Shown here piece by piece: positions 10 to 64,000 of a stretch of 64,000 nt of DNA (its first letter is position 1; the number at the start of each line of letters is the position of its first letter). Source of the stretch: Lentimicrobiaceae bacterium (GTDB taxonomy: Bacteria; Bacteroidota; Bacteroidia; Bacteroidales; UBA4417); assembly GCA_028697555.1 (NCBI GenBank), contig JAQVEX010000004.1, positions 9,332 to 73,331 of the forward strand, written 5' to 3'. The notes under the pieces were generated by a model. The model saw nothing but the letters and a program-made list of their open reading frames with translations, was not told the DNA's origin and searched no databases. The translations under genes were made by a program, and so were the position numbers.

Positions 10-3000
10 CTAACGGGTAACAACGACCTTTTTATTAACAGCTTGCACTGAATTCACCACACTAACAACATAAACACCCGAAACTACAGGTGCTTGGGTT
101 ACGAAAGTGTCGGTTAAGTAAACAGAGTTGCTGCTTACTAACTTGCCTTGCATGTCGTAAACGTTGACCATAGTTTTGGTGTTTTGCATGCTTGGTACGC
201 TCACAATTATCTGATTGTTGCTATTTACATAAATCATGTTTTCGTCTGCCAAATCGTAAGGTGTGGAATAGACTGCGTTTACGAGTTTTAATTCAAAACG
301 GTTGTCGCTGTCAGTGTTGGCGTGATTGAAAGTGTAAACAGGATTTTGACGTAGGTTTACGCTTCTGTTTTCCTTTTTGTCAATCAGGTATGGAGTAATA
401 TTGCTTTGTAGGCTTCTGTTATCGGCTACAAACTGAACTTGCGTTGATGCGTTCAGAGTAAAGCTAAGCGGTATTACTGTTTCGTAACGATTTAACGGCA
501 GGGTATTAATAGTAAGGTTTTCATTGTCGGCACTGATACTGCTAAGTTGCGGTGCTTCTTCCGAACCTATCATTTTAACCATATCGCCTTCATCTGTGCC
601 TAAATTCCATTTGTTATCTATAACAAACAGTATCTCGTCCTGCAACTGATTGCCATTTGCGGCTATACGCAACTTGTTAGGTTGATTGCCCGTGCTATAA
701 AAAGGTGTTAATTTGTCTGCTCTATTGCCTACTCTACATTTGTTGGTAAGTGACAATGTACCCGCACTTGTGGCTTTAACGAAAAACGCCTGTCCTATGG
801 AAATAGTATCGTAATTTGTGGTTGTACCCGTTCCGGCAGGAACGTTATAAGCTTTGTAGTTGCCATTATCCCATACCCAAAAACCGTATGATAAACTAGT
901 TGGAAAATTCTCAATTTCCGAAAAATCTATATGAGATGGAAAAGGATTAGGCACAAAGTTAAATCCTTTATCGGCAGCCGTAGATGTGTATGGTATTGGG
1001 AAGAAGCCGTAATTAAAAGTACCGTCAAAATTGTAGGTTATACTGGCACCTGGATAGTATATCAAATATCCCCTGTCTGCATACAATTGGGTATTGGTAG
1101 CCGAACCCATACCTTCCCATTGATTGAGTGTTTCGTTAAATTTGTACAAGTAAGAGCCATTGAATAAGTTACTAACAAGATTTGTTCCTTGTTCAAGCGG
1201 AACACTAACACCGTGGTAGCAATTTGCCGTGAGAATCGTATTGCCCGAAATATATCTCTTTATATCTCCGGCTGTTATAAAGTCGTGCATAAGCGCACCC
1301 GTGCCTGTATTATCGCTTAGGATATTAAAGCTGACAGTTCCATCTTTTGTAGGCGATTTATCTACAGCCATACCGGCAATACCTAAGTTGGAATTAGGAT
1401 TAATTGTAAATGTTGTGTTTCCCGATTTTTTAAGTATTACATTGTTTACGTTATTTAACTTTGAATTTACGCCAACACAGTTATTAACATCTACACTGTT
1501 ATTATTAATAATAAGATTGAATGTACTATCATTAGAATCGCTTATGGGGACATCATAGCTGGCGTCCAGACCGGTATTGGTGCTCTGTGTTAAAGCCGAA
1601 CCAAATCCTCCTATGTTGCCAAAATAATCCTTTTCCTTTACTACCCATTCGCTATTTTCGGCTGTTGTCCCGAAAGAGCCTTTGGGCATATAATTACCTT
1701 TAGTTACATTTAGCTTGCGTAACAGGGTTTTGTCTTTTGTTGCATTAGCCACACCTGCAACTTCCCAAGCTCCACTAGCAGGATTATCTCCTATCTTTCC
1801 AAACAAATCGCAGACTACTCCATCGTAAAAAACTTCTATAGCACCGTCTCCATCAACATATTCGAAGAAATATGAATAATATTCATTGCCATAATCTTTA
1901 ATACTTGCGTTGGCATTATAATGATATAAAACATAAACATCGCCTGCGGCAAGGATTATATTATTAAAAAGCCAATCTCTATATGTAGCATCAGGTTGAG
2001 TAACACGAATTTTCAATTTAATCAAATTAATATTACTTCCTGTACCGTTGTATATTTCTAAGGCTTTGTTATTGCCTGTACCTACTATATATTCGGTAAT
2101 AAATATTTTGGGTACTTCCGTAGCATCTACAATACTGAATGTTTCACTTTGTGCCGAATAATCATCGGAAATACGTGTAATTTTAATCTTACAGTCGTTG
2201 CTTCCATTCTGTGTAATATTCCAAGTCCAAGCTCGGTTTTCTACGGGAACAGAAGCTGCTAGCTCTTCCCATACAGGATTAGCAGCAGATGCGTTGCGAG
2301 TAAGTTCAATTTTTGCGTTACCAGATGCTATACCATTTACACCCCACAATATATCTTGTGAAGTACCTTGAACCCATTTGCTGAGCGTGTTAGGATAATT
2401 AACACCTATATATTTTTGTACAACATTAAAAATTGCACTCTCCGAAATTTTTCCACCTGCTGTTAATTTAATTCTGTACGAATGGGGAGTCTGATTATTA
2501 GGCACATACCAATCCCAAGAACCATTGCTTATTGGTATGTTTTCTGCTATAGTTACCCATTCTGTGCCTGATGTTACATCCTTCAATTCAATTTTAACAT
2601 CATGGGTGATACCTACATGTGCCCAAGTAATATTATAGGTTGTGCCGTATTGCCAATTGTCCCACGCTTTTGGGGAAATAACGGATATTGACGGAACCGG
2701 AGTAACCGCAATTTGAAGGTCATCTATAGCAAGTAGTGCGTTACTACCGGTTGCCAAGTCGTCTGTCCAGCGTATCCACATATAATCGCCCTGTTCCCAT
2801 TCAAGGTTTATGCTGCTTGCGTTAATAGCTTGCCTGTTTGCAGCCAAATTGCCATCTACACCCTGACCACTGTTATCACCTGTTAGAATTTCATTAAGGT
2901 TGAAATCATTTATATTTGTCCATGTTCCATCGTTAAGGTTTGTAGCATCAAAGCTGATTGCAAATTGGCTAGACTCATTGTTGCTATTATTTCCGGTACG

Positions 3001-6423: not shown

Positions 6424-6446
6424 TAGAGATGAGTTTGTTTACAAAT

Positions 6447-6591
6447 CATAGCCATTAGCTGTTGGCTGTTAGCTATTGGCTATGGTCGTTTGCTAATAGC
6501 CAATGGCTAAAAGCTAAAGGCTAAAAGCCATTAAACCACGTACCACACAACACCGACCACTAACCACCAATCACTATCCACTAATCACTAT
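6447..6591. repeat. Composite heptamer element. Inverted arrays (GCTGTTR/GCTATTG arm against GCTAAAR/GCCAATG arm) form a long imperfect hairpin, followed by 8 units of an ACCACNN C-rich array.
   Basis: Left arm catagccattagctgttggctgttagctattggctatgg, loop tcgtttg, right arm ctaatagccaatggctaaaagctaaaggctaaaagccatt. Then accacgt accacac aacaccg accacta accacca atcacta tccacta atcacta. The block starts 24 nt after the truA stop. Confidence 0.85.
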
Positions 6592-6674
6592 TTCCCATAT
6601 TAACTTTACATTAATTGGTACTTTGTGCTTAAAATTTTAAGAAATAGATTATTTTTGTTTGAAATAAACGCAAT

Positions 6675-16770: not shown

Positions 16771-17004
16771 TGATAGCTATTAGCCGTTAGCCCCCGAAGT
16801 CTCGGGGCTGTTGGCAGATAAAGTTAGAAATTAGAAGTCAGAAGGTAGAAATGGGGAATTCACTATTAATAACCACTATTTCTAATTTCTAATTTTTAAT
16901 TTCTGATTTCTAACTTCTAAAACCCGTAACCCGCAACACCAATCACCAACCATCATTCACCATTCACCATTCACCATTCACCATTCACCAACCACCAATC
17001 ACCG
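16771..17004. repeat. Composite mosaic element: GCTATTA/GCCGTTA units, small GC hairpin CCCCGAAGTCTCGGGG, inverted TTAGAAN arrays forming a hairpin, then 12 in-register ACCCGYA/ATCACCA/TTCACCA heptamers.
   Basis: Read directly. It fills the whole gap between two convergent genes. Both stop codons (TGA at 16767..16769 and TGA on the minus strand at 16999..17001) touch or lie inside the arrays. Confidence 0.9.
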
Positions 17005-21593: not shown

Positions 21594-22053
21594 ATCTTCG
21601 CATAAGTTCGGTAATATCATGCATTAAGCCATCTTTAACTTTGTAAAGTCTTTGGTTTGTCTGCAACGACTTTAAGCCTCCTAGTTCTTGTTTGTAAGAA
21701 CCCAATTTTATATAATCGAAATTCTGTGTTTTAACTTTGTTTAGTTTCTCGCAACCCGAATACCAAGCTGTTTTTATGCACAATTCAGATTGCTTTTTAA
21801 TAAAAACCGATAACTTCTCAACTTCAAACGGATTGGCATCTCCACCCATAAAACATACGCAAGTAATCAAATATCCGTACTTACTCAGCAAATTTAAAAT
21901 CACAGTTTCGGTCAAAACTTCGCCTATATCTAACCATAGCTGCGGACTATGACATCCTTTGCATTTGTGCGGACAGTTCGAAAGATTTATAGCCAATGTA
22001 ACCTCGTCGGGAATTTCCTGAAAAACTATATCATAATCGGTGTACTTAAGCAT
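21592..22053 (-). CDS. nrdG: Anaerobic ribonucleoside-triphosphate reductase activating protein
   Basis: 153 aa. Radical SAM CPHKCKGC motif. Overlaps the nrdD stop by 8 nt. Confidence 0.85.
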   Translation of the reverse strand: MLKYTDYDIVFQEIPDEVTLAINLSNCPHKCKGCHSPQLWLDIGEVLTETVILNLLSKYGYLITCVCFMGGDANPFEVEKLSVFIKKQSELCIKTAWYSGCEKLNKVKTQNFDYIKLGSYKQELGGLKSLQTNQRLYKVKDGLMHDITELMRR

Positions 22054-24181
22054 ATTGTTCTATTTTTTCCTCAAGTTGAACTTTTTGGTTGTCGCAGTAG
22101 TACCTCTGTGCAGCCTCAACCTGACGCGCTGCCGAGAAATTACTAATACGTTTCATGTAACCTATCACGCGAGTTAGGTAGTCAATATTATCGGAACCGC
22201 ACTTTGGACACTTTTTAAGATACCTTTTGTCAATAGCGTTACAATCGTTGCATACCGTATTTGGAATATTGAAGGTAAAATAGTTGCATCCTTCAATAGC
22301 TGCCACACATAGCAATTGTCGGTATTGCTTTTTCGATAAATGTTCTTCCAAATTCATATGAAGTGCCGACCCTCCCGTAAGATGTTTTATATACCTTGAA
22401 CCATGCAAGCGAAACTTATCTATAACATTTAGCGACTCGTCTTCCACAATATAAAAATAACTGTTGTAGCAACTGCGTGGGACGAAGTAACCGTCTTCTC
22501 TGTCCCATTTTGCATGCTTAACTCCAACATTTTCAGCCGGTATCATTTCGCAGTTGAACATTGTTTTAGAAGTACGGTACTTTTTATTGTATCTTTCTAC
22601 CAATCCCAATACGTCTTGCACAAATTTCAGATAGTTGCTGTTATCTGATATTTGTATGCCTTGGAATTCGGCTGCTTCAACTATTCCGTTTACGCCAATT
22701 GTAAGATATTGCCTATCCAAATTGATGTAGCCGGCATCAAAAAGCGGCAGCATCTTTTTATCCTTAAACATGATAAGGTTTTCGTTGTAAGCTATTTGTA
22801 CTTTATGTACTAAATTGACAACTTTTTCGAGAAAATCTAAATATGGAATCCCAACTTTATCTGCATATTGCACACAACGATTGATATTAATAGTCAGCAC
22901 ACTTTTCGATCCTGTTGAAATTCCTCCCGCACCTAAGGTGTAGCTAAATCCGTTATCCTGAATTTCGTTACGCAACCTGCAACAGCTTGATAATGAATCA
23001 GCATTATCGCTCATATATGTAAAAAACGAGTGCCCTTCTGCGTACATTTCTGCAGTGAAATCGCCGTATTCTTCGTCTAACACATCGCCGTCTTTTGTGA
23101 GCAAAGCCATTGTCTCGACCGGAAATGTCAGCACCGATCTGGTTCTTTCTTTATTAAACCATTTTATAAACCTTTTTTGCAACCAGTTTAGCGAATCCCA
23201 GTGCGGTTTGCTTCCGTCGGGAAAAACAAAGTCGCGGAACAAACTTTCAAAATAGTACTTATCGTAATAAGAAATATTCCAAAAAACTGCCTGAAAATTG
23301 CGTGCTCCTGTTGGTTGATTTATGGAATAAATAATCTGCTCGAAAAAATCGCAAATAACTTTATCTAATGTTCTTCTGCGCTTAGATAAATCTACAACCT
23401 CATCGACGCGTTTGTAATAATCTATACCGTATTCCAATCCTATAAAGTAATTCATGTACATTAGAAACTCGGGAGTTGCACAAGCTCCGCTCAACATGCT
23501 TGAAACCATAAACACCATGTTTATGAAACCTCCGCTAAACGATTTTAAATTTGTTGGCGGTGTTGAATTGCCTCCTATCCCAACTGTTCCGTTCAATAGC
23601 CAAGGATACATTGTTATGCTTGCACAATAATTTGCCAAACTTGTCTCGTCGTTTTTGTATATAAAATGCTCATTTAACATTTTAATATACTCATCAGCTA
23701 ACTCCTTTCCGTACATTTCTTTAATTCTATCGGTTAACAGTTTTCTGTTGAGTTTGATAAAATTATTTTTAGGGATTTCGCCTATAAGTGTTGCTATGTT
23801 TTTGTTTTCAACATTGGCATTAGCATCGAACTTACTTCCTGTGGCTGCGTTTTGAGCATTGCAGTAGTCCATCAGAAAATTCATTTTATCGCGAATTTCT
23901 CGCGTTTCTGCATGTTCTTTTCTGTACAGCATATACGATTTTGCTACTGCAAAATATTTTTCCGCCATCAAAGCCACTTCCACGTTGTTTTGAATTTCTT
24001 CAACAGTCATTTCGTTTGTTATTTGCAGGCGTGAAAGAATATTCGTCATATCCTCATCGGTAGCAAATGAGCCGACTGATAAAAATGCTTTGCGGATTGC
24101 ATTTTTGATTTTTTCTATAGAAAACGGCACCTTTTTGCCGTTTCGCTTAATTACTGTTCTGATTGCACCATCAATTTCCAT
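22046..24181 (-). CDS. nrdD: Anaerobic ribonucleoside-triphosphate reductase (class III)
   Basis: 711 aa. N-terminal ATP-cone. C-terminal Zn-ribbon CNDC..CPKCG and a glycyl-radical region ..RVIGYM... Confidence 0.9.
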   Translation of the reverse strand: MEIDGAIRTVIKRNGKKVPFSIEKIKNAIRKAFLSVGSFATDEDMTNILSRLQITNEMTVEEIQNNVEVALMAEKYFAVAKSYMLYRKEHAETREIRDKMNFLMDYCNAQNAATGSKFDANANVENKNIATLIGEIPKNNFIKLNRKLLTDRIKEMYGKELADEYIKMLNEHFIYKNDETSLANYCASITMYPWLLNGTVGIGGNSTPPTNLKSFSGGFINMVFMVSSMLSGACATPEFLMYMNYFIGLEYGIDYYKRVDEVVDLSKRRRTLDKVICDFFEQIIYSINQPTGARNFQAVFWNISYYDKYYFESLFRDFVFPDGSKPHWDSLNWLQKRFIKWFNKERTRSVLTFPVETMALLTKDGDVLDEEYGDFTAEMYAEGHSFFTYMSDNADSLSSCCRLRNEIQDNGFSYTLGAGGISTGSKSVLTININRCVQYADKVGIPYLDFLEKVVNLVHKVQIAYNENLIMFKDKKMLPLFDAGYINLDRQYLTIGVNGIVEAAEFQGIQISDNSNYLKFVQDVLGLVERYNKKYRTSKTMFNCEMIPAENVGVKHAKWDREDGYFVPRSCYNSYFYIVEDESLNVIDKFRLHGSRYIKHLTGGSALHMNLEEHLSKKQYRQLLCVAAIEGCNYFTFNIPNTVCNDCNAIDKRYLKKCPKCGSDNIDYLTRVIGYMKRISNFSAARQVEAAQRYYCDNQKVQLEEKIEQYA

Positions 24182-24249: not shown

Positions 24250-24445
24250 TTTTCTTCTTAGCCTTTTCTCCCGAAAGCTACGAATTACATGTCGAAAATG
24301 ATAGGTCTTCCGGCTTGTTACATTTTAAAACGCCTTCCCAGAAAAAATTAAATCCAGTGGCTTATACTATTTTAAAACCTATTTGTAACTTACGGCTGCG
24401 GGTACAGCTACCGATTTTAACGGTATTCCCTTAGCATCATTTTGA
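24250..24445 (-). ncRNA. Cobalamin (B12) riboswitch in the nrdDG leader
   Basis: The minus strand reads ..AUGAUGCUAAGGGAAUACCGUUAAAAUCGGUAGCUGUACCCGCAGCCGUAAG...AAGCCACUGG...CUGGGAAGGCG...AAGCCGGAAGACCUAUCAU... It contains the GGGAA/CCCGC core, the GCCACUG..GGGAAGGC pair and the B12 box AGCCGGAAGACC. P1 is AUGAU (24440..24436) pairing with AUCAU (24302..24298). A TAATTTTG -7 box lies at 24451..24458. Confidence 0.8.
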
Positions 24446-24596
24446 CTCAACAAAATTAAGGATTAAATGTGTGCTTTTGGTTTTTAAGCAAATGTTTTAT
24501 CAACAAAGTAATTAACATATGCGTTCAATCTTTTGCGATTCTAACATTTTGGTTAGTCCGAAAATTTCACTCAATTGCAAAACTACCTTATTCTAG

Positions 24597-34108: not shown

Positions 34109-34306
34109 AGGTAGAAGGTAGAAATTAGAAATTAGAAGTAGCCGTTAGCTATTAGCTGTTGGCTGTTAGCTGTTAGCGGGGACTAGCTAAAAGCCAAAGG
34201 CTAAAGGCTAAAGGCTAACGGCTAAAAGCTAAAAGCCACCGCGTACCACGCAACCCGCAACCCGCACCACGTACCACCAATCACCAACCACTAATCACTA
34301 ACCACC
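34109..34306. repeat. Composite mosaic element: AGGTAGA/AATTAGA units, a long GCTNTTR / GCYAAAR inverted-array hairpin, then 10 in-register ACCGCGT/ACCCGCA/ATCACCA heptamers.
   Basis: Read directly. The last five tilS codons and its TAG stop (34291..34293) lie inside the C-rich array. Confidence 0.9.
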
Positions 34307-35622
34307 GAACATTGCAGTACCTTCTCAGTCTCGTGTGTAACCCTGTATCTCTCATCTGTACGCATGCCGATAATCCAAGCAATATCGTCGCCAGAAGTGA
34401 GTAGTAAAATTTCTTCTTTTTCGAAAAGTGAGAGTTTATTGTCGATAAAAAAATCGCTGAGTTTTTTAAAGTTTTTACTTCCGAATGGAATAAATTTATC
34501 TCCTTGTTGCCAATGCCTTATGGTTACAGGGAATTTTATTTTGCTGATATCTAGAAAAGCTTGGTTTTTGTTTTTCAAATCTTTGATTTCTGAATATGCA
34601 ATCTGCTTAAAATCAATAACTTTTGATTTATTGCTTAAAAGTTCATCAATTGAGTTATAGGTTTCGGTTACAAACTTTTCGTTGGTTTCAATGGGTTTGA
34701 TAATAATGCTGTTTCTATCGCAAAGCAAAGTGTGTGTGGCAGAACTAAAGCATCTTCCCGATGTTGTTTCTACATCCTGCACAATACCGTCGGTCTGAGA
34801 TTTATTAAACCCGAAATCTTTAAGCAGGTAATACATGTATGCTGCTACAGGTTCAAGGTTTTTAATTTTGTCCAAATCTATGTAGGTTATTCCGTTTTCT
34901 TCAACAAAAACCTGATTTTTGACTTGGTTTATATGATTTTCTAAAATAAGCTCGGCATCCCTGAAGTTTTGAGCGTTTTTTTCGGCTATTTCCAACAGAT
35001 TGGGACTCACTTCAAGCAGCAATGGCAGTACATTATGGCGAATATAGTTTCGCAAATAATCATCCGACTGGTTTGAAATATCTTCACGCCAAGGCAAATT
35101 ATTTTCGGTAGCGTACTGCCTTATCATTTCGGAAGTAGCAAACAACAAGGGACGGATAATATTATTTTGTTTGGGCAACATGGCTCTAAGTCCTTTAAAA
35201 CCCGTACCACGCAGCAAATTAATGACTTGCGTTTCAAATTGGTCGTTTAGATGGTGAGCTGTAAGGACTGCGAAAAAGTTGTTTTCGGAAATTAACTGAT
35301 TAAACCAATCGTATCTGATTTCTCTTGCGGCTTCTTGCAGAGTTAGTTTGTGCTGCTTCATATAGAGATGTGTATCTGCGTTTTTGAAAAAAAACGGCAC
35401 ACTCAACGATTTAGCCATTTTTTCGACAAAAAGGTAATCTTGATGCGAATCGTTGCCTCTTAAATTAAAATTGACATGTGCAACGCTCACATTGTAATTT
35501 AATTTTACCAAAATGTTTAATAAAACAACCGAATCAACACCACCGCTAACTCCAACCAAGAGTTTATCTTGTTTTTGAAAAAGATTTTCTGTTTTAACGT
35601 ACTTGATAAAATCTCGTATCAT
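34291..35622 (-). CDS. tilS: tRNA(Ile)-lysidine synthetase
   Basis: 443 aa. PP-loop motif VGVSGGVDS. Confidence 0.9.
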   Translation of the reverse strand: MIRDFIKYVKTENLFQKQDKLLVGVSGGVDSVVLLNILVKLNYNVSVAHVNFNLRGNDSHQDYLFVEKMAKSLSVPFFFKNADTHLYMKQHKLTLQEAAREIRYDWFNQLISENNFFAVLTAHHLNDQFETQVINLLRGTGFKGLRAMLPKQNNIIRPLLFATSEMIRQYATENNLPWREDISNQSDDYLRNYIRHNVLPLLLEVSPNLLEIAEKNAQNFRDAELILENHINQVKNQVFVEENGITYIDLDKIKNLEPVAAYMYYLLKDFGFNKSQTDGIVQDVETTSGRCFSSATHTLLCDRNSIIIKPIETNEKFVTETYNSIDELLSNKSKVIDFKQIAYSEIKDLKNKNQAFLDISKIKFPVTIRHWQQGDKFIPFGSKNFKKLSDFFIDNKLSLFEKEEILLLTSGDDIAWIIGMRTDERYRVTHETEKVLQCSVVSD

Positions 35623-35691
35623 TGCGGTGTTTTTTTGAAAACTAGGACAAAGCTATATTTATTGTTACGGAACGATTGATAATTAACAGTT

Positions 35692-35830
35692 AAAAGCTGT
35701 TAGCTTTTGGCTCTTAGCTCTTAGCTATTAGCTGTATTTAGTCAACAGATAACGGCTAATGGCTAATGGTTAATGGCTAACGGCTAATGGCTAAAAGCCA
35801 ACACGTACCACGCAACCCGCACCACGCAAC
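35692..35830. repeat. Heptamer inverted-array hairpin (GCTNTTA arm / GGCTAAT arm) followed by an ACGTACC/ACGCAAC C-rich array
   Basis: aaaagctgttagcttttggctcttagctcttagctattagctg ... acggctaatggctaatggttaatggctaacggctaatggctaaaagcc aacacgtaccacgcaacccgcaccacgcaac. The block ends at the stop codon of the Zn-ribbon gene. Confidence 0.9.
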
Positions 35831-35831
35831 A

Positions 35832-36800
35832 CTACTCGTCTATTTCCCCAACAAGCTCGCTATCGATAAGGATACGTCCGCAAAATTCGCATACGATAAT
35901 TTTTTTGTGCGAGCGGATATCTAACTGTCTTTGTGGTGGAATGGTGCTAAAACAACCACCGCAGGAGTTTCTTTCGACAGGTACTACAGCCAATCCGTTG
36001 CGAGCTGCATTTCTGATGCGTTGGTATGCAAAAACCAAGCGCTCATCTATTTTAGCTTTTTGCTTTTCCGAAATTTCTCTAAGTTCTTTTTCTTCTATTT
36101 CAGTTTCTGCAACAATATCTTTGAGTTCGGTTTGTTTAATTTCAAGTTCGCTTTGCAGTTCTCCAAGTTGCGACTGGAATTTTTCTATGGCATCTTTATT
36201 GGAAGCGATTTTTGCTTCAAACTCTTTTATTTTCTTATCGTTGAGTTGTACTTCCAAACCCTGAAATTCAATTTCTTTTTGAAGAGCATCGTACTCACGG
36301 TTGTTTCTAACATTGTTTAGCTGCTCCTCGTACCTTTTAACCAAAACAAACCTTTCCTTAGTATCGTTCTTTTTGCTTTTGATTTCCTTTTCGCAGGTAT
36401 CAATTTCGTGAATATAATTTTCGATACGAGTGCTCAACCCTTCAACTTCATCTTCCAAATCTTGTACTTCCAAAGGAAGCTCACCTTTTATGATTTGAAT
36501 TTTATCTATTTTAGAATCAACTCGTTGCAACTTGTACAAAGCGGATAAATTTTCTTTAACTGTAAGTTCAACTTCTTGCTGTTCGTCCACCTTTTCAACA
36601 ACTTCTACAACTTCTTTTTCAACAACTTCAGGAACGTCTTTAGTTTTAACTTTGGTTTCTTCGGTTGCTTTAGCTGCCTTAGTTGCTTTGGTTGCTTTGG
36701 TTGTTTTTGTTGTTTTAGTTTCTTCTTTTTTTGCTTTATTAGTTGTCGTAGTTTTCTTTACAACTTTCTTTGTATCTTTTTTGTCTGTAGTCTTTGCCAT
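35832..36800 (-). CDS. Coiled-coil / C4 zinc-ribbon protein (COG1579-like) with a Lys/Thr/Ala-rich N-terminal tail
   Basis: 322 aa. C-terminal CGGC...CEFCGR zinc ribbon, a long heptad-rich centre, and an N-terminal KTTKTTKATKATKAAKAT tail. It is paired with the NIF3 gene, which I recall as a common arrangement. Confidence 0.7.
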   Translation of the reverse strand: MAKTTDKKDTKKVVKKTTTTNKAKKEETKTTKTTKATKATKAAKATEETKVKTKDVPEVVEKEVVEVVEKVDEQQEVELTVKENLSALYKLQRVDSKIDKIQIIKGELPLEVQDLEDEVEGLSTRIENYIHEIDTCEKEIKSKKNDTKERFVLVKRYEEQLNNVRNNREYDALQKEIEFQGLEVQLNDKKIKEFEAKIASNKDAIEKFQSQLGELQSELEIKQTELKDIVAETEIEEKELREISEKQKAKIDERLVFAYQRIRNAARNGLAVVPVERNSCGGCFSTIPPQRQLDIRSHKKIIVCEFCGRILIDSELVGEIDE

Positions 36801-45657: not shown

Positions 45658-45697
45658 AGTGTTTAATTGGTGCAAAAGTAGTGTTTTTTGGTTAATA

Positions 45698-45810
45698 TTG
45701 GCTATTAGCCGTTGGCTATTGGCTGTTGGCTATTTGTCCCGAAGTTTCGGGACGGGTTGCGGGGTACGTGGTGCGGGTTGTCATGCAATTAGCAATGAAC
45801 AATTAGCAAT
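45698..45810. repeat. Mosaic element: GCTATTR/GCCGTTG units, hairpin GTCCCGAAGTTTCGGGAC, GGGTTGC/GGGGTAC/GTGGTGC G-rich heptamers, GCAATTA units.
   Basis: Read directly. The 18-nt hairpin (45736..45753) is identical to the one at 47712..47729. Confidence 0.9.
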
Positions 45811-46609: not shown

Positions 46610-47668
46610 GTGAAATTAGTATTAAAAATTTTCTTAGCCATAATTATTATTGCAATTGTGGCTTTCGCCTCTTTGTTGCTGTATTTAAGTGTTACCAAAT
46701 ACAAACCAAGCGAGCAAGAAACCTTGTATATATCCGATGGCGACACCATAACAGTTGATAGCAGCCGCATTTTTAACGTTATGATATGGAATATCGGTTA
46801 TGCCGGTTTAGACCAAAGCATGGATTTCTTTTACGATGGTGGCAAAAAGGTGCGTCCGACAAAAGAACAATCGGAGCTTAACTTTAATAATATTTTGCAA
46901 ACCGTGCATGAGTTGGGTAACTCCGCAGACTTTATTCTTTTGCAAGAAGTTGATGAAAAATCGAAAAGGAGTTATAAAACTAATCAGATGAATGAGTTTT
47001 GTGTCAATTTCCCTGACCGCTGTAGCAGTTTCGCCCTTAATTACAACGTTAGATTTGTACCCGTACCTGTAAAAAGTCCTATGGGAAGTGTAAAAAGCGG
47101 CTTGCTGACCTTAAGCTCAATCACTCCTACAAGCTCTGTCCGTTACTCGTTTCCAAGCAGTTATGGATTCCCTAAAAATTTGGCTATGTTAAATCGTTGT
47201 TTTTTAGTAAACAGATACGATCTCAGCAATGGCAAGCAATTGCTGATTATAAATACGCATAATTCTGCTTACGACGATGGCAGCATGAGAAAGCAAGAAA
47301 TGGATTACCTTAAAACATTTTTGACTTCCGAATATCAGAAAGGTAATTATATTGTCGTTGGTGGCGACTGGAACCAGTGTCCGCCCAACTTCAATTATAA
47401 ATATACTGATGACGTCTTCGACAGTATAAATAAATTAGATATCCCATCAGACTACCTTCCCGACTGGACTTGGTCATACGACCCATACACTCCAACAAAC
47501 AGAAGAGTTATAATTCCTTATACAAAAGGCGAAACAGCCACAACAATAATCGACTATTATTTGCTTTCGCCAAATTTAAAATTATTGTCTGTAACCGGTG
47601 TTAATAAAGAGTTTGCCTCATCAGACCATAATCCGGTTTTGTTGACGTTTGCATTCGGTGATTGGTGA
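46610..47668 (+). CDS. Endonuclease/exonuclease/phosphatase (EEP) family protein, membrane-anchored
   Basis: 352 aa with a GTG start before the TM helix. LLQEV, NTHN and the C-terminal SDHNPV motif. The last codons and TGA stop come from the GGTGATN array. Confidence 0.75.
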   Translation: MKLVLKIFLAIIIIAIVAFASLLLYLSVTKYKPSEQETLYISDGDTITVDSSRIFNVMIWNIGYAGLDQSMDFFYDGGKKVRPTKEQSELNFNNILQTVHELGNSADFILLQEVDEKSKRSYKTNQMNEFCVNFPDRCSSFALNYNVRFVPVPVKSPMGSVKSGLLTLSSITPTSSVRYSFPSSYGFPKNLAMLNRCFLVNRYDLSNGKQLLIINTHNSAYDDGSMRKQEMDYLKTFLTSEYQKGNYIVVGGDWNQCPPNFNYKYTDDVFDSINKLDIPSDYLPDWTWSYDPYTPTNRRVIIPYTKGETATTIIDYYLLSPNLKLLSVTGVNKEFASSDHNPVLLTFAFGDW

Positions 47669-47741
47669 TGGGTGATGGGTGATGGGTGATGGGTGATGCG
47701 TGGTGCGGGTTGTCCCGAAGTTTCGGGACGGGTTACGAGTT
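47657..47741. repeat. Mosaic element: GGTGATT, GGTGATG x5, CGTGGTG, CGGGTTG, hairpin GTCCCGAAGTTTCGGGAC, GGGTTACGAG.
   Basis: Read directly. It contains four GGG tracts with 4-nt TGAT loops at 47670..47693. Confidence 0.9.
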
Positions 47742-47748
47742 TCAATAA

Positions 47749-48017
47749 TTTTGTTAAACTGCCGTGTAATAAACGAACTTCACTCTTTTCGTATAGATAA
47801 TCTATCATAGAAAAAAATATCAATAGCCAAAAACTTTGCTTTAAAAGGACGGCATACATTTCTTCTGAATGAAGTTCGAAATGAATCCTTAGTGAGAACG
47901 GGAAGTTCCGAGCTTGCTCGGAAATCACCCGCACGAACTTAGGATTCATGAGAACGTAATTCAGAAAAGAAATGTCAGCCTTGACTTTTTGGTTCTTTTG
48001 TGTCAAGACAAAAGAAC
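47749..48017. repeat. Structured interspersed repeat, copy 1: a ~118-nt rod-like imperfect palindrome at 47857..47974 plus a terminal hairpin at 47992..48017.
   Basis: It aligns by eye to 62324..62659 with few differences in the core. I saw only four substitutions across the ~140-nt core compared base by base. Confidence 0.85.
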
Positions 48018-48090
48018 ATAAAAAAGATAGAGACAAAACAGTTTATTTGAAACATTTTAGCCTAATCAAAGCTTTAATTTAAGAAATAAG

Positions 48091-48240
48091 CATTTTCAGT
48101 GCTTCGGTCTTCGGCGCTTCGATACACCTTCGGCACTCAGCGACCTTCAGACACCGAAGCAACTGAAAATGTTGCACCGACCACCAACCACCAACCACCA
48201 ACCACCAACCACAGACCACTGGTTGCTAATTGCTAATTGC
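48091..48240. repeat. GC-rich CTTCGGNN-type octamer hairpin (48091..48171) followed by CCAACCA x4 heptamers and GCTAATT units
   Basis: CATTTTCAGTGCTTCGGT ... ACCGAAGCAACTGAAAATG stem. The last four codons and TAG stop of the 48226..50280 gene lie in the GCAATTA units on the minus strand. Confidence 0.85.
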
Positions 48241-50280
48241 ATCAACCGCTGCATCTACCGCATTTAGCAATGGTTCAATAGAAATTTGATTACCGACTGC
48301 TTTTTTCATCCATTGTTGTGGAGTAAGTCTGCCTTGGGTGTAAATTCTTTCAAATTCTTTGGCAAAATCTTTACCTACAAAATGCTGACTTAGTTGAAAA
48401 TCGATAACGTGCCCTATTGGGTAGTAAGACAAATAAAGCGGATAATCAATCATATGCGAATAAATACCCAAGATAGGTTCGTCTTTACCTCCCAAAACAT
48501 CGGCGTAGTATGAGTTCCAAACGTCTTTTGCAATTCTTACGACAGTTTCTTTAAGCTGTTTTTCGTCGGCGTTGGGATTATCGTAAAGCCATTTCCAAAC
48601 TTCAATATCTACAAGCGCAACGCCCATAATTTCGTAGCATGACCAGAAATTATCCAAAGCATTTTTATGTTCCGACGATTCGTCTTTAGTTTTAGAACCC
48701 AATAATATTTCAAGGTCTCTGTTTTGGAACAAAAATGCTGCAGCTTCGGTAAAGGCATTGTTAGGAACGCCTGACAACATCCAGTACGGCACATCGTTTA
48801 TGCTTAACGTTTGCTCAACATTATGACCAAACTCGTGAATAGCAATATTATATCCTTTATAATCCATTCCCGTTTCAGCAATACGAGTCCTTAGGTGTGC
48901 GTAATCGTTTTTCATAGCTGCACCCCAAGCATGTCCGGAACCGACAGCAGCATCGACTTTTATAAGTTTTGCTATTTCCTGAGCTCTATCTTTTTGCCAT
49001 CCTAATTTTACAAGAATATTCGGCAAATCCTTTTCAAAAGCTATAGTATTGGGATATTTCGTTTCAGTAATTACCGAAAGCTTAGTTTGGTCTATATTGC
49101 TTCTTTCTTTAAAGCCGTCGTACCAAATATCGTAAGGACGCAAATCGCGTTTTAAATCTTGCTTAATAATAGCTGCAACCTTAGCAACTTGCTCAGAAGA
49201 CAATAGAGATTTAAAGAGTGCTTCGACATCATCTACAGAAATTTCCATAGTTCTGTCAAAATTACGACTAATAAAAGTAGGAGAAGTCGGAGTGTATTTA
49301 TCTACCGCCGATAATGCCTTAAAATTGTTGAGAAGGTGCATGTATCGAGTGTCGGGTTCGGCTGTGAATGTTTGTTCGGCATCATCGACATAAATTTTAT
49401 TCGAGAAAGGATTCCACATATATTCGGAACTGTTTATAACTTTCTGCGGAATAGTTTGATAAACAATGTGTTTCATCACTTCGTAAATAGCTTCTTGTCT
49501 GTTAAAACCGTTTTCGCTATCGGCGTAGTTGGCTTTTATTTCATCGCGAAGTCCCCAATGAGAAATAAGACTTTTTCCTTGATCGAATATTTTTTCGTTG
49601 TTATCATTAATCAGGCAACCCGTATTAATGTTGTAGTTTGAAATGTAAAAATCGCCATTGGCATAGGTTTTAGCAATATTCTGATTTAATTCCGAAGGAA
49701 TTCGGTAAGTAAACATATCGCCCAAACGAGCGTAAGCCCATTGCTTGGCTGTCCAATTTTCTCCCAATGTGTTTTTTTGCTCTAATGAATAGTTAGGAAA
49801 GTTCAGAATACAAACGTGAGCTATCTTGTTTAGATACAAGTCGGAAAACAAATGCGACGATATGTCGAACTCTGAAAAGAGCAAATCTACAGGAAGCGGT
49901 TTGTAATTGGAAAGCTGAACAGGTTCTTTTATAAACAAATCGGTTTTGTTGAAATTACCTACAATGGCTTCCATATTGCGGTCTATTCTGTAGAAAAGAC
50001 TATCCAATTCTACAGGGTCTGTGACGAAGTATTTTTTACAAAATTCCGCAAACTCCTTTTCGGTTCCGTCTTCGCTTGTCCACAGCTGTGCCAATTGGTT
50101 TACTCCAATATTGGCTCGTTGCAATGTTGCCTCATCGGCAGATACGGCAATACTATCTATTGTTTGTTCAATAGTTTGTTTTGTAATTTTTGCGATTGAG
50201 CCTTTGTCGGTTCCAGTACTACACGAACTAATAAGCACAACAAGGCTTACAATGATTGATAAAAATGTAATTTTTTTCAT
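48226..50280 (-). CDS. Zinc metallopeptidase lipoprotein (HEFGH motif, possibly M3-like)
   Basis: 684 aa. Lipobox LISSC. The single HExxH is in AIHEFGHNVEQ. The family assignment is tentative. Confidence 0.6.
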   Translation of the reverse strand: MKKITFLSIIVSLVVLISSCSTGTDKGSIAKITKQTIEQTIDSIAVSADEATLQRANIGVNQLAQLWTSEDGTEKEFAEFCKKYFVTDPVELDSLFYRIDRNMEAIVGNFNKTDLFIKEPVQLSNYKPLPVDLLFSEFDISSHLFSDLYLNKIAHVCILNFPNYSLEQKNTLGENWTAKQWAYARLGDMFTYRIPSELNQNIAKTYANGDFYISNYNINTGCLINDNNEKIFDQGKSLISHWGLRDEIKANYADSENGFNRQEAIYEVMKHIVYQTIPQKVINSSEYMWNPFSNKIYVDDAEQTFTAEPDTRYMHLLNNFKALSAVDKYTPTSPTFISRNFDRTMEISVDDVEALFKSLLSSEQVAKVAAIIKQDLKRDLRPYDIWYDGFKERSNIDQTKLSVITETKYPNTIAFEKDLPNILVKLGWQKDRAQEIAKLIKVDAAVGSGHAWGAAMKNDYAHLRTRIAETGMDYKGYNIAIHEFGHNVEQTLSINDVPYWMLSGVPNNAFTEAAAFLFQNRDLEILLGSKTKDESSEHKNALDNFWSCYEIMGVALVDIEVWKWLYDNPNADEKQLKETVVRIAKDVWNSYYADVLGGKDEPILGIYSHMIDYPLYLSYYPIGHVIDFQLSQHFVGKDFAKEFERIYTQGRLTPQQWMKKAVGNQISIEPLLNAVDAAVDAISN

Positions 50281-59950: not shown

Positions 59951-60028
59951 AGTTACGATTTTTTCTTTCAAAGGTACACAATTTTTTGGTTTCACAGTAC
60001 CTAAAATGGGATAAAAAGTTTTAAAATT

Positions 60029-60118
60029 GCCATTAGCTGTTAGCTATTAGCCGTTGGCTATTAGCCATTAGCTTATGTTTACTTAGCCAAAAGCTAACAG
60101 CCAATAGCCGATAGCTAA
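60029..60118. repeat. Heptamer inverted-array hairpin (GCYRTTR arm / GCYAAHA arm)
   Basis: gccattagctgttagctattagccgttggctattagccattagc ttatgtttactt agccaaaagctaacagccaatagccgatagctaa. Confidence 0.85.
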
Positions 60119-60198: not shown

Positions 60199-61866
60199 TT
60201 ATTTGTTTCTGCCAGCTGACGAAACCGTTCTGCTTCTGCTAGCTTCCGATTTTTTATTAGATGTATTGCTATCGTCGCGTTTTACAGTATTACTTCTGCT
60301 AGATGAACTCACTTTGTCTTGTGTTCTTTGTGAAGATTGACGTGACACTTTGCTCGTTTCTGCCTTAGCAGTACTTCCCTCGTTCCTTGTTCTAACACTG
60401 CTGCTTTGTTTATTGTTATCGCGACTGCCAGTACCAACCTTGCTTGTATTACCTTTTTCTCTTTCGCGAGATACATTTTTTGGTGTAGACCTTTCTTTTC
60501 TTGAATCAACTTTCGTATTGGGACGACTTTCTCTTTCAGGAGTAGCTTTTCTAGGACTTACTCTGTCGTTTCTAGTGTCAACTTTTCTTTCGGGTGTGCT
60601 TACTCCAGTGTTGTTACGACCCTCTCTTTCAGGAGTATCTTTTCTTGGACTGACTCTGTCATTGCTTGTATCAACCTTTCTTTCAGGTGTGCTTACTCCG
60701 GTATCGGTGCGACTTTCTCTTCTCGGGGAAACGTTGTCCGGTCTGGCTCTGTCGGTTCTGTTATCAACTTTTCTGTCGGGAGAAACTGTCGGTTTGCTAC
60801 CATCGCGACCTGCAGAATTGACTCCTGTGTTGGTACGACCGTCTCTTTCACGAGCTACGTTTTCAGGTCTTACTCTCACATCTTTTGAGTGGAATCTGGA
60901 GTCGTGTTTGCTATCTTGTCTGCCGACATTGTCGCGTCCAGCAGAGCTAACATTCGTAGAGCCTCTCAAATCTTTTCTATCTACTACATTGGTTGGTCTT
61001 GCTTGAGTATCAGCTTTTTCAACTCTTGGACGATAGACAGATACAGTATTGTTTGAAACAACTTCTTCAGTTTTTCTGTTAACATCTACTACACTTTTTT
61101 CTCTAACTTTTCCTTGGTAATGGTATTCTACATCGCTAACACGTGGACCGTAGTACCAGCCATCGTCATATCCTTCTTTGTATCCACTGTTGTAGCCATG
61201 GTCATACCCACGGTCGTAACCTCTGTTGTAGCCTCTATTGTAGCCTCTTCTGTAACCCTTGTCATAGCCGTATACGTAGCCGTCGTCGTAACCGTTGTTA
61301 TACACATACACATTGTTGATTATAGTAATTCTATTTACAACAACCCTTCTGTCGTATATGTAATTGTTCCAGTTGTATGAGTAAAAGTGTCTTTTAGGAA
61401 CGAAAGTCCACCAAGACGAAGGAGCGTTCCAACTCACAGTAATTGAAACGTTTGGTCCCATTGGAGCCCAGCCGTAGCAATTTCTGTAGGTTCCCCAGGT
61501 AACCCATGCAGGAGCCCATTCATATCCGGGAATCCACATCCAACCTAAGTAGTCGTCGTAAAACCAACGACCATAGTGGAATGTAGCCCAACCCCATTTG
61601 TAATCGGAAATCCACATCCAACCGTAAGGTGTGTTTTCCCAGTATCCGTCAGTCGCGTACGGTTGGAAGTAGTCGTACCTGTCGAACCAGGGACGCCATA
61701 CGTAACCGTAATCGTAGGTGTAAACCCAATCGCCGTAAGGAGATAAATCATTATAAAAAGTTTGGAATGTAATTCCTCCGTCCATTCTTTGTGCTTGAAC
61801 TTCACTTTGAAAAGCACTAACCGACAGGGCGAAAATAATTGCTATTGTTATTACTATCTTTTTCAT
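60199..61866 (-). CDS. Secreted protein with a Trp/Tyr-rich YxWGxW-type N-terminal domain, a (G-Y-x) low-complexity block and a long basic Arg/Ser/Asp/Thr-rich repeat tail
   Basis: 555 aa. Signal peptide ..SVSAFQSEVQA. GYVWRPW, YGWMWISDYKWGWATFHYGRW, GWMWIPGYEWAPAWV. RGYNRGYNRGYDRGYDHGY. Tandem ~29-aa units TGVSTPERKVDT.NDRVSPRK.TPERE. Confidence 0.7.
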   Translation of the reverse strand: MKKIVITIAIIFALSVSAFQSEVQAQRMDGGITFQTFYNDLSPYGDWVYTYDYGYVWRPWFDRYDYFQPYATDGYWENTPYGWMWISDYKWGWATFHYGRWFYDDYLGWMWIPGYEWAPAWVTWGTYRNCYGWAPMGPNVSITVSWNAPSSWWTFVPKRHFYSYNWNNYIYDRRVVVNRITIINNVYVYNNGYDDGYVYGYDKGYRRGYNRGYNRGYDRGYDHGYNSGYKEGYDDGWYYGPRVSDVEYHYQGKVREKSVVDVNRKTEEVVSNNTVSVYRPRVEKADTQARPTNVVDRKDLRGSTNVSSAGRDNVGRQDSKHDSRFHSKDVRVRPENVARERDGRTNTGVNSAGRDGSKPTVSPDRKVDNRTDRARPDNVSPRRESRTDTGVSTPERKVDTSNDRVSPRKDTPEREGRNNTGVSTPERKVDTRNDRVSPRKATPERESRPNTKVDSRKERSTPKNVSREREKGNTSKVGTGSRDNNKQSSSVRTRNEGSTAKAETSKVSRQSSQRTQDKVSSSSRSNTVKRDDSNTSNKKSEASRSRTVSSAGRNK

Positions 61867-62035
61867 GGCTCTATATTTTATTAAGTTAAACCTTTATTTT
61901 ATTAGTATTACAACATATATGTTATTAAGTTTAAAACAAAGTATGTGCCAAAGTTTTATTTTCTGAAAAGTATTTTGACAAAATTAAAATTAATTTTAAC
62001 GAAAGTTGCATTGACTTACAACTAACAAGTTCAAA

Positions 62036-62094
62036 ATTTACAGTTTCAATTTTGAATGCATTTTTAAAAATAATCATTTACAGTTTCAATTTTG
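62036..62094. repeat. Perfect 19-nt direct repeat ATTTACAGTTTCAATTTTG x2 with a 40-nt period
   Basis: Copies at 62036..62054 and 62076..62094, about 170-230 nt upstream of the start of the 60199..61866 gene. Confidence 0.8.
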
Positions 62095-62323
62095 TTTCTT
62101 TCATTTTCTTTGCTTGTCCAAAGAAAACGAAACAAAAGAAAAGACACTTTTTACAAGGAATTTTTTATTGCCTAAAGGCAATAAAAACCGTATAAAAGAA
62201 ACTAAATTTCTTACAGGGATTCAGAATTTTTAACGTTTCTTTTATACATATTCTGCGTAAAAAGGATATTAAACGAATGAAATTTTATCCCGCCTGCTTT
62301 GGCAAAGCAATCGTAAGTTGGCG

Positions 62324-62659
62324 ATTTTGTTAAGCTGTTTTGTAATAAATTAACTTCACTCTTTTCGCGTGAGTAATCTGTAAAGTAACAAAACACAATA
62401 GCCAAAAATTTTGCTTTAAAACAAGGATGGCATACATTTCTTCTGAATGAAGTTCGAAATAAATCCTTAGTGAGAACGGGAAGTTCCGAGCTTGCTCGGA
62501 AATCACCCGCACGAACTTTGGATTTATGAGAACGAAATTCAGAAAAGAAATGTCAGCCTTGACTTTTTGGTTCTTTTGTGTCACCCGAGAACCGTATTAA
62601 CGGTTCGAGAGCATTGAGTTCCTTTAAAAATAATACGGAACGAAATAACACAAAAGAAC
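62324..62659. repeat. Structured interspersed repeat, copy 2: rod at 62435..62552, and a terminal hairpin (arms 62570..62581 / 62648..62659) whose loop is expanded by ~66 nt.
   Basis: It aligns to 47749..48017 and starts 9 nt downstream of the dsbD stop codon. Confidence 0.85.
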
Positions 62660-62667
62660 GTAAAAAC

Positions 62668-64000
62668 CTAATTATGCCTTTTGTTGTAATTCTCGGCTCC
62701 TCTATCTAAGAAATCTATAAACTCATTTATATTGAGATTGTATGCTCTTGGCTCAACCATTAGGGTTCTATCCGAATCTAAAATCAGATAATATGGCTGA
62801 GCATTGGAACCGAATTGCTTAATTTGTATTTCTGCGTTCTTCTTACCCAATAGTTTGATAAGTCTGCCATCTTCATTGGTGTACCATTCGCTTTCGGGCA
62901 ATTCAATACTTTTATCATCAACGTAAAGAGCCACAATCACAAAGTTTTCGCGTAGTCGCTTCAGCACCTTAGGATCGCTCCACACCCTATTTTCCATCTC
63001 TCTGCAGTTGGTACATCCAAATCCCGTAAAATCAACAAACAAAGGCTTGTTCAACTCTTTTGAAACTCTTAGAGCTTGCTCCAAATCGAAGTAACCTTTT
63101 AAGCCGTGAGGCAATTTAAACTTCGTGTTTTTGCCATATAAAGGTTCTTCGGTAATATTGTAACTAATAGTTGAACCTCCACCGGAGTTTTCGCGGACAA
63201 TTGTGGATATGTCAAAATCTTGCGTTTCCATAGGTGGTAGCCAGCCAGAAATTCCTTTCAACGGAGCTCCCCAAAGTCCTGGAATTAAATATACAACAAA
63301 AGCAAATGTTGCTATAATAAGCATCAAACGTGGAAAAGATTTGATGACAGGGTAATCGCTGTCGTGCGGAAATTTGATTTTTCCTAACAAGTAGAAACCC
63401 ATCATGGTAAATACAACAATCCAAAGACCTATATATATTTCGCGGTCTAGTATTCCCCAGTGATAAGTCAAGTCGGGAACGCTTAAGAATTTTATTGCAA
63501 ATGCCAATTCAATAAAGCCGATTACAACCTTAACCGTATTAAGCCAACCACCTGATTTGGGTAGTTTTTCCAACCAACTTGGGAAATATGCCAATAATGT
63601 AAAAGGAATTGCAAAAGCTAATGAAAAGCCGAGCATTCCAATAATAGGTTTCAAAATTTGTCCGCCAACGGCTTGCACAACAACCACTCCAACAATAGGA
63701 CCTGTACAACTGAATGACACCAAAACTAAGGTCAATGCCATAAAAATAGTTCCTATTATACCACCCTTTTCTTCGGCTGCCACCGATTTGTTCACTAACT
63801 TCGACGGCATTCGTATTTCAAAATACCCGAAAAAGGAAGCAGCGAAAACAACAAATATTAAAAAGAATAGTATGTTAGGTATCCAGTGCGTACTTAGCCA
63901 GTTGCCGAAATCGGCTCCAAATAAAACAGCTATCAATACGCCAAAAATTACGTATATTAATATTATTGATATACCGTAAACCGTAGCTTGTAATTTACCT
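62668..64000 (-). CDS. dsbD: Thiol:disulfide interchange protein DsbD (partial; the N-terminus lies beyond the window edge)
   Basis: Polytopic membrane core plus a C-terminal thioredoxin domain with FGCTNC. The reading frame stays open from 63936 to the window end (..GKLQATVYGISIILIYVIFGV LIAVLF..). Confidence 0.85.
   Translation of the reverse strand, partial: GKLQATVYGISIILIYVIFGVLIAVLFGADFGNWLSTHWIPNILFFLIFVVFAASFFGYFEIRMPSKLVNKSVAAEEKGGIIGTIFMALTLVLVSFSCTGPIVGVVVVQAVGGQILKPIIGMLGFSLAFAIPFTLLAYFPSWLEKLPKSGGWLNTVKVVIGFIELAFAIKFLSVPDLTYHWGILDREIYIGLWIVVFTMMGFYLLGKIKFPHDSDYPVIKSFPRLMLIIATFAFVVYLIPGLWGAPLKGISGWLPPMETQDFDISTIVRENSGGGSTISYNITEEPLYGKNTKFKLPHGLKGYFDLEQALRVSKELNKPLFVDFTGFGCTNCREMENRVWSDPKVLKRLRENFVIVALYVDDKSIELPESEWYTNEDGRLIKLLGKKNAEIQIKQFGSNAQPYYLILDSDRTLMVEPRAYNLNINEFIDFLDRGAENYNKRHN

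Follow-up and report, generated by a model that had tools for sequence, protein, structure and literature searches.

A structured multi-copy intergenic repeat of Bacteroidota with a covarying rod and a near-invariant 3' module

Two repeat copies and their gene context

The window, i.e., the whole 64-kb stretch of Lentimicrobiaceae DNA analysed here, contains two copies of a structured repeat. Copy 1 is located between the convergent ORFs 46610-47668 (+) and 48226-50280 (-), and 9 nt separate the end of copy 2 from the stop (62668) of a minus-strand DsbD_TM/thioredoxin ORF, both as described in an earlier account made from the letters of the window, which we call the sequence-only reading. The aligned copies (47748-48005 and 62324-62583) are 89% identical over 261 nt, and 97% identical within the shared core 47845-48005. 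An 18-mer from the apex has an expectation of 0.01 in shuffles, yet is present at both places; the direct repeat is far beyond chance. A covariance model search of the window returned copy 1 with 208 bits, copy 2 with 184 bits and nothing further, and a search for the 3' motif with 3 mismatches permitted led to the same two places only, which supports the initial statement that the repeat occurs twice.

It had also been proposed that the copies align throughout. They do form a direct repeat in the same orientation, but copy 2 carries a 65-nt insertion (62584-62648) in the loop of its terminal hairpin, after which the alignment picks up again. The extent originally assigned was too short: copy 1 extends over about 47747-48091 and copy 2 over 62283-62666. 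Copy 1 lacks part of the 5' end that other family members have, while copy 2 is preceded by a further repeated segment, termed segment U. On the plus strand, the unit is ordered as 5' domain, GGC/GCC-closed rod (approximately 125-130 nt, four helices), 3' module and A-rich tail:

47747..47850, plus strand: 5' domain of copy 1, less conserved (76% identical to copy 2) and 5'-truncated, from alignments
47822..47833, plus strand: conserved box AATAGCCAAAAA in the 5' domain, an inverted repeat in copy 1 and in copy 2
47851..47980, plus strand: rod of copy 1, an imperfect 130-nt hairpin, from the fold, covariation in 15 copies and the covariance model score of 208 bits
47851-47853 (GGC) with 47978-47980 (GCC), plus strand: closing helix of the rod
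47883, plus strand: 5' side of a compensatory pair, G in copy 1 and A in copy 2; partner 47947, C in copy 1 and U in copy 2
47893-47898 (UGAGAA) opposite 47932-47937 (CACGAA), plus strand: G.A-rich internal loop that can form U-A, G.A, A.G and G-C
47899-47902 (CGGG) with 47928-47931 (CCCG), plus strand: 4-bp rod stem
47903-47905 (AAG) and 47924-47927 (AUCA), plus strand: conserved bulges of the rod
47906-47923, plus strand: apical hairpin of the rod
47976..48017, plus strand: 3' module of copy 1, 42 nt, consisting of CAGCCTTGAC (47976-47985), TTTTTGG and a hairpin
47992-48001 with 48008-48017, plus strand: 10-bp stem of the 3' module hairpin, loop GTCAAG at 48002-48007
48018..48091, plus strand: A-rich 3' tail of copy 1, partly common to other Lentimicrobiaceae copies
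62070..62323, plus strand: segment U, a second repeated, highly structured segment upstream of copy 2
62283..62428, plus strand: full-length 5' domain of copy 2, from alignments
62429..62558, plus strand: rod of copy 2, from the fold and 184 bits
62554..62659, plus strand: 3' module of copy 2, stem 62570-62580 with 62649-62659

The left limit of copy 1 was set by comparison with the empty or alternative site in loci L263 and L265, and the right limit (about 48091) is the point where similarity to the site of the relatives restarts. The ends of the unit are approximate, the insertion sites being hot spots for other small repeats.

Within the 5' domain, RNAalifold gave no consensus structure. 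The columns CAATAG..AAA in the region of box AATAGCCAAAAA are invariant in 11 Lentimicrobiaceae copies. The box may pair with the U5GG linker of the 3' module (47986-47997), to which it is complementary; alternatively, it would form a small local hairpin. The 3' module has the general form CAGCCUUGAC, U5GG and a 10-bp hairpin with the loop GUCAAG, and this loop is the exact complement of the upstream CTTGAC at 47980-47985. In copy 2 the insertion is a two-hairpin expansion that takes the place of most of the GTCAAG loop. The same 65-nt expansion was seen in L133, L174 (twice) and L253, and thus in at least five copies at different loci; in one expanded copy the first expansion hairpin is swapped for a different one.

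Segment U contains a 23-bp hairpin at 62090-62141 and a 13-bp stem (62190-62202/62235-62247). It precedes 6 of 13 copies of the Lentimicrobiaceae group (copy 2 and 5 of the 12 others) and is missing from copy 1; tandem U-element-U-element arrays occur. Its start carries the box CAATTTTG at 62087-62094, and (T/C)AATTTTG is found there in 7 out of 7 U copies. The published Bacteroidetes -7 consensus is TAnnTTTG, and we regard this -7-like box as a candidate promoter. The 23-bp hairpin, T-rich/A-rich with a CTTGTC loop, is also conserved in a Flavobacteriales MAG (L196 3818-3857) and may represent a second widely shared module.

Several features of other kinds were observed in the window. Tandem heptamer repeats of GGTGATG/CCACCAA and TTAGCTG/GCTATTG type stand at many gene ends (6432-6604, 16921-17004, 34115-34314, 35684-35844, 45682-45744, 47656-47705, 48166-48235 and 60003-60072), and their number and type vary among close relatives; arrays of such kind have been described in a few Bacteroidetes and cyanobacteria (PMC4679880). 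The perfect 18-bp palindrome GTCCCGAAGTTTCGGGAC occurs at 47712-47729 and 45736-45753. At 47712 it is flanked by a GGGTT direct repeat (47707-47711, 47730-47734), whereas L263 and L265 have no palindrome and a single GGGTT at the same spot; this pattern suggests a very small insertion that duplicated 5 bp of its target. A second hairpin element at 48090-48175 (GCATTTTCAGTGCTTCGGT ... ACCGAAGCAACTGAAAATGTTGC) with several CTTCGG motifs is shared with L263, L265 and L267 and is not in JAPXLB-type genomes. A cobalamin riboswitch (24283-24456, minus strand, 75.7 bits) lies upstream of a 711-aa ORF (22046-24181). The DUF6600 gene at 60199-61866 holds four tandem 93-nt repeats (60515-60919), and its repeat-containing protein was a poor homologue query that returned only distant homologues. 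Internal repeats of approximately 680-910 nt at 2419-4683 in the 1674-aa ORF 10-5034 point to a repeated protein domain.

Conservation of the folded structure

The rod folds as the single long imperfect palindrome that had been drawn for it, with an MFE of -87.6 kcal/mol (z = -7.5 against dinucleotide shuffles), and the rod of copy 2 shows the same folding behaviour. Within the rod the copies differ at exactly the four positions announced, 47883 G/A, 47941 A/T, 47947 C/T and 47957 T/A; a fifth difference at 47850 is not among these. The assignments made for them hold: 47883 and 47947 face each other in one pair, which changes from G-C in copy 1 to A-U in copy 2, 47957 sits in a 3x3 internal loop, and 47941 disrupts a pair beside an existing U.U mismatch. 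Three of the four are nonsynonymous in the minus-strand ORFs called here. Across the family, the pair 47883/47947 occurs as G-C, G.U and A-U.

Covariation was assessed on 15 copies of the window type. RNAalifold placed 34 pairs in the rod, 18 of which show double compensatory changes versus 7.5 ± 1.8 in shuffles, a number attained by 0 of 500 shuffles; as the copies represent about 3-4 independent lineages, we take these numbers as supportive and not as a formal probability. Standard pairing is found in 96% of the cells of these pairs (85.7% in shuffles), and it drops to 27-48% when the structure is slid by 1-3 columns. In the further copies that the sequence-only reading had called for, double changes thus exceed those in shuffles, in agreement with that reading. 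The loop nucleotides of the rod are kept in the Owenweeksia, Cryomorphaceae and Flavobacteriales copies.

A similar picture emerges for the 3' hairpin. Among 84 distinct instances, the two loop-adjacent pairs alternate between U-A, G-C and C-G, and 30 G.U pairs face 9 A.C pairs. The pairing between the loop and its upstream complement also varies, with CTTGAT/ATCAAG, CTTGAA/TTCAAG and the G.U-keeping GTTAAG; four variants are uncompensated, so that we treat the CTTGAC/GTCAAG pairing as suggestive only. We read the hairpin and CUUGAC/GUCAAG as alternatives because a 6-nt loop cannot fully pair while the 10-bp stem stands.

Folding is asymmetric with respect to the strand. The plus strand is more stable than its complement in 84 out of 101 distinct rods, by 4.6 kcal/mol on average (p = 3e-11), and in 100 out of 101 modules. 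Counting against the plus strand, the majority subtype of the Lentimicrobiaceae shows A.C/C.A oppositions in one rod segment, which would be G.U on the other strand.

Coding capacity and catalogued RNA families

One minus-strand frame is open through the rod in all Lentimicrobiaceae copies, which is the one observation in favour of a small protein encoded by ORFs 47557-48036 and 62330-62584. In Owenweeksia, Cryomorphaceae, other Flavobacteriales copies and other subfamilies, the homologous frame is stopped after 12-19 codons. ORF start and length vary between copies, three of the four differences between the window copies alter an amino acid while preserving or respecting pairing, and a Pfam search of the ORFs gave no match in the repeat frames. 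The repeat thus encodes no conserved protein, and we give the coding explanation hardly any credence. Together with the compensatory changes in 18 of the 34 rod pairs, the broken frame in distant copies bears out the original suggestion that selection acts on structure rather than on coding; the conserved small protein that might have overturned it did not appear.

At gathering thresholds, Rfam 15 yielded no family match to the repeat in the window or in 16 further loci. Permissive searches (E <=10 for window 47600-48200 and L181 1370-1590, E <=5 for window 61980-62700) returned microRNA and snoRNA hits at chance level only. No terminator-like site was found in either copy on either strand: the U run precedes the 3' hairpin, and A's come after it.

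A number of candidate identities were rejected. Integron attC sites are excluded by the absence of RYYYAAC/GTTRRRY cores from the rod ends and by neighbours that are housekeeping genes, and a retron RNA by the wrong motif order and the lack of a nearby reverse transcriptase. IS91/rolling-circle ends and Y RNA resemble the repeat at word level only, Pistol and other known ribozymes gave no Rfam signal, and the spacing within the 3' module misfits the -33/-7 consensus of a promoter. The FopS RNAs, a Porphyromonas MITE and the GTAG/CGTC REPs are different things.

Relatives and breadth of the family

The Exo_endo_phos protein flanking the repeat shares 95% identity with its counterpart in a Lentimicrobiaceae MAG of anaerobic-digester origin, with next relatives at <=56%, and the sequencing runs containing the window sequence are metagenomes of landfill, sludge and digesters. 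Nine copies in the nearest MAG, JAPXLB01, fit the rod-plus-module pattern and one more has a variant module, which makes at least 10. The rod type of the window was further found in MAGs of Owenweeksia (3 copies), Cryomorphaceae (2 copies), Flavobacteriaceae (L182) and Flavobacteriales (L210). At the level of unitigs, the rod core has 5-11x the depth of the copy-specific 5' domain in Logan DNA runs, and the Logan contigs of the window's own strain end at the repeats.

The 3' module reaches much further. A plasmid search gave matches restricted to the last 45 nt in Parabacteroides and Chondrinema records, and the wider family was found from there. A scan with CAGCCTTGACYTTTTGGTT, an exact 19-mer of the module, hit at least 120 stretches of Bacteroidota genomes. 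The matches listed include Parabacteroides, Flavobacterium, Chitinophaga, Saprospiraceae and Cytophagales as well as Sphingobacteriales, Empedobacter, Ignavibacteria and Balneolaceae; a single genome often has several copies. The 42 nt hardly change between Parabacteroides, Flavobacterium, Chitinophaga and Saprospiraceae. Most of these genomes carry a different rod subtype upstream, which has a 5' GGCCTT start, GGCGTTAA, the apex CTGTCTGAGC, a loop and GAGTT, followed by TTTTAGCC. It shares the GGC/GCC closure and the tandem G.A motif and aligns in full length to the window-type model with 45-66 bits. Exact apex patterns of the window (32-mer and 18-mer) gave chance matches only in the genome collection, and therefore the window apex is in no species representative. 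Two metagenome scans gave no match, and the 3' module is absent from 2.9 million viral contigs and from phage records. Logan metatranscriptome contigs, which are undirected, do contain it; the window copy and one Parabacteroides copy were examined.

In a MAG labelled Ilyobacter (OY760648.1; L170, L190, L193, L197 and L237), the unit is a head-to-head pair with one element per strand, each with its own module, and resembles a REPIN doublet. The Fusobacteria label is odd for a genome that is full of a Bacteroidota repeat.

Insertion sites, orientation and neighbours

Site 1, the position of copy 1, was compared among genomes that have the same convergent gene pair and a 684-aa neighbour at least 90% identical. 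The convergent genes are 557 nt apart in the window, compared with 183 nt in JAPXLB-type genomes and 237 nt in the JBASOV and JBJSVW genomes; the element is absent from all three lineages, and the shared flanks assign the extra DNA of the window to 47747-48091. In two relatives a different 62-nt hairpin stands at this site, which therefore is a hot spot. Synteny with all relatives breaks off about 325 nt away from copy 2. Around this break (near 62000), the relatives have a divergent Por_Secre_tail gene where the window has the repeat and the DsbD-like gene; their thioredoxin-like gene stands elsewhere, with the Exo_endo_phos gene on one side and the TGT (queuine tRNA-ribosyltransferase) gene on the other.

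Copies truncated at the 5' or the 3' end, tandem arrays and nested insertions were all seen, and some copies have small hairpins inserted within the module. Of the downstream genes, 58 share the strand of the element and 51 are on the opposite one, and the direction of the gene context is the same in 29 and opposite in 16 (p = 0.07). With respect to the sign of GC skew in the local 8 kb, orientation splits 49 to 52; local skew reflects the direction of replication poorly. An even split of this kind would count against transposition of lagging-strand single-stranded DNA. In 7 out of 7 loci with more than one copy, the copies share their orientation. Downstream genes are diverse and no common theme was found among the neighbours. 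ORFs that end at or span the module are housekeeping or spurious ones; 0 of about 125 loci had a transposase-like ORF beside the element, and no mobilising enzyme was found at these loci.

The checks for a MITE that the sequence-only reading had proposed gave a mixed result. The repeat is multi-copy (JAPXLB01) and polymorphic for presence among the relatives at site 1, and the rod of this non-coding element, a long imperfect palindrome, could be taken for the paired terminal inverted repeats of an internally deleted DDE insertion sequence. The palindrome is internal, though: approximately 100 nt on its 5' side and 110 nt on its 3' side belong to the same unit, whose ends (47747 and 48091) are not complementary to each other. 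Comparison with L263/L265 revealed no direct repeat at the junctions of site 1, a weak negative at a complex site. The asymmetric conserved loops, the strand asymmetry of the G.U type and the want of a full-length partner at about 125 loci further argue against a classical MITE, which is largely refuted and in our judgement very improbable.

The position of the copies has also to be considered under a cis-acting role, in which the element serves the flanking genes as a 3'-end stabiliser of mRNA, a processing site or a barrier between convergent genes. Similar roles have been proposed for REP, ERIC and Correia elements, and a mobile origin would not conflict with such a role. The two window copies are found immediately beyond gene ends, with copy 2 at 9 nt from a stop, the module of Parabacteroides distasonis ends 8 nt from the stop of an HU gene, and many copies are 1-100 nt from a gene boundary. 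A terminator with a U-tract is found on neither strand, orientation relative to the neighbouring gene follows no rule, and the neighbours have no functional theme. Besides, a simple stabiliser would not need a near-invariant 42-nt sequence throughout a phylum. We hold a cis-acting role as the main explanation to be unlikely.

Comparison with known repeat systems

ERIC sequences, the intergenic repeat units of Enterobacteria and Vibrio, are imperfect palindromes of approximately 130 nt that occur between genes in either orientation, are conserved across genera, have no known transposase and are thought to act once transcribed. In all this they are alike, whereas the Bacteroidota unit is asymmetric and modular (5' domain, rod, 3' module and optional segment U), with conserved G.A loops and a near-invariant 42-nt tail found throughout the phylum. 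No match to the repeat was obtained in 5,426 E. coli genomes.

REP/REPIN-RAYT systems share the non-autonomous, hairpin-forming multi-copy intergenic repeats with compensatory changes, the lack of terminal inverted repeats and target duplications, and the inverted doublets, head-to-head dimers being the unit in the Ilyobacter-labelled MAG. REPs are, however, 20-40 bp long with a GTAG or CGTC head, whereas the window copies have a 130-nt rod and are headless; other subfamilies carry (G/T)TAGC approximately 10 nt before the module, a position that differs from that of the REP head. REP sequences are species-specific while the 3' module is common to a phylum, and no RAYT-like ORF was present at about 125 loci.

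Correia/NEMIS elements of Neisseria and BOX elements of pneumococci are small repeats cotranscribed with their neighbours that form long hairpins, and BOX is modular as well. Both belong to another phylum; Correia elements end in true inverted repeats and duplicate a TA, and the BOX modules have nothing that matches the closing helix or the 3' module.

A further likeness exists to the palindrome-associated elements of IS200/IS605 and the TnpB/IscB guide-RNA scaffolds, with their asymmetric ends and a subterminal hairpin that is recognised on one strand. The motif 7 nt ahead of the module hairpin, CTTGAC/CTTGAT, recalls TTGAT, the target of ISDra2. On the other hand, the Bacteroidota unit has a single hairpin type at one end, tnpA/tnpB stands beside 0 of about 125 copies, autonomous copies with the same end were not seen there, and orientation shows no bias with respect to local GC skew, poor as this proxy for replication is.

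Within the Bacteroidota, the FopS/GibS small RNAs of Bacteroides are likewise a multicopy non-coding family (PMC11697453). FopS RNAs are 65-70 nt long with a single-stranded seed and a terminator, have canonical promoters, are confined to Bacteroidaceae and are deposited in Rfam (PMC11697453), whereas the window repeats match no Rfam family.

By analogy, the repeat is most like the structured intergenic repeats of ERIC, REPIN and Correia type, yet its features set it apart from each of these groups as they are defined. No description of it came up in the literature searched, whether by topic or by sequence words; to judge from that literature and the libraries searched, it appears to be an as yet uncatalogued mobile structured element.

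Interpretation

Taking the gains, losses and folding data together, the element fits at least a gain-and-loss repeat whose single-stranded plus form is under selection. We lean, with modest confidence, towards a non-coding, non-autonomous mobile structured repeat of the intergenic regions of Bacteroidota that is recognised as a folded single strand. Inverted ends, target duplication and an adjacent transposase are all missing, and therefore spread did not proceed via a cut-and-paste DDE transposase; the nearest analogies for mobility may be REP/REPIN-RAYT, hairpin recognition of IS200/IS605 type or an RNA-mediated route.

In such a mechanism, the element would act as a folded single strand of plus polarity. 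This would most likely be RNA transcribed from neighbouring genes or from a candidate promoter in segment U, and less likely single-stranded DNA. The invariant 3' module, which may switch between its 10-bp hairpin and the CUUGAC/GUCAAG pairing, would be bound by a conserved protein acting in trans, and this protein would then copy, move or process the element.

The main rival takes the copies as paralogous genes, some with the promoter of segment U, for multi-copy functional structured RNAs that are part of a ribonucleoprotein or act in trans. Conservation of structure and loops over order-level distances is unusual for a selfish repeat and fits a functional RNA equally well: conservation and covariation extend from Lentimicrobiaceae to Flavobacteriales, unpaired nucleotides are kept (the tandem G.A of nGAGA/CGAA, AAG and AUCA), and the plus strand is the better folder. 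The -7-like box in all seven U copies, the viral contigs devoid of the module and the undirected metatranscriptome contigs that hold it point the same way. Most Bacteroidota units, by contrast, begin at GGCC and share no upstream promoter, about half of the Lentimicrobiaceae copies, copy 1 included, are without segment U, copies are present or absent between close relatives, truncated copies are common, and orientation relative to genes is near random. We consider functional RNAs of this kind possible but doubtful as the principal explanation; the mobile-repeat and the functional-RNA readings are not mutually exclusive.

A bolder proposal, which we rate as somewhat improbable, is that rod and 3' module form an uncatalogued structured nucleic acid present throughout the phylum, either a SINE-like mobile functional RNA or a new ribonucleoprotein RNA or ribozyme. 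In the SINE-like version a conserved reverse transcriptase or HUH enzyme would take hold of the invariant 3' module; in the other, the CUUGAC/GUCAAG switch would be part of the mechanism.

Implications

On the practical side, the elements disrupt short-read assemblies, mark points of rearrangement and produce spurious ORF calls such as 47557-48036 and 62330-62584. Bacteroidota are dominant in gut, sludge and aquatic communities, and their intergenic repeats and non-coding RNAs are poorly charted. If the element is mobile, it represents a repeat class without inverted ends or a known enzyme; if it is a functional RNA, a sizeable structured family is absent from Rfam. A near-invariant 42-nt module on covarying rods implies a conserved binding partner, for which the module can serve as a marker. 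The repeat would gain much in interest if a new mobility or ribonucleoprotein system were found to use the 3' module as its handle.
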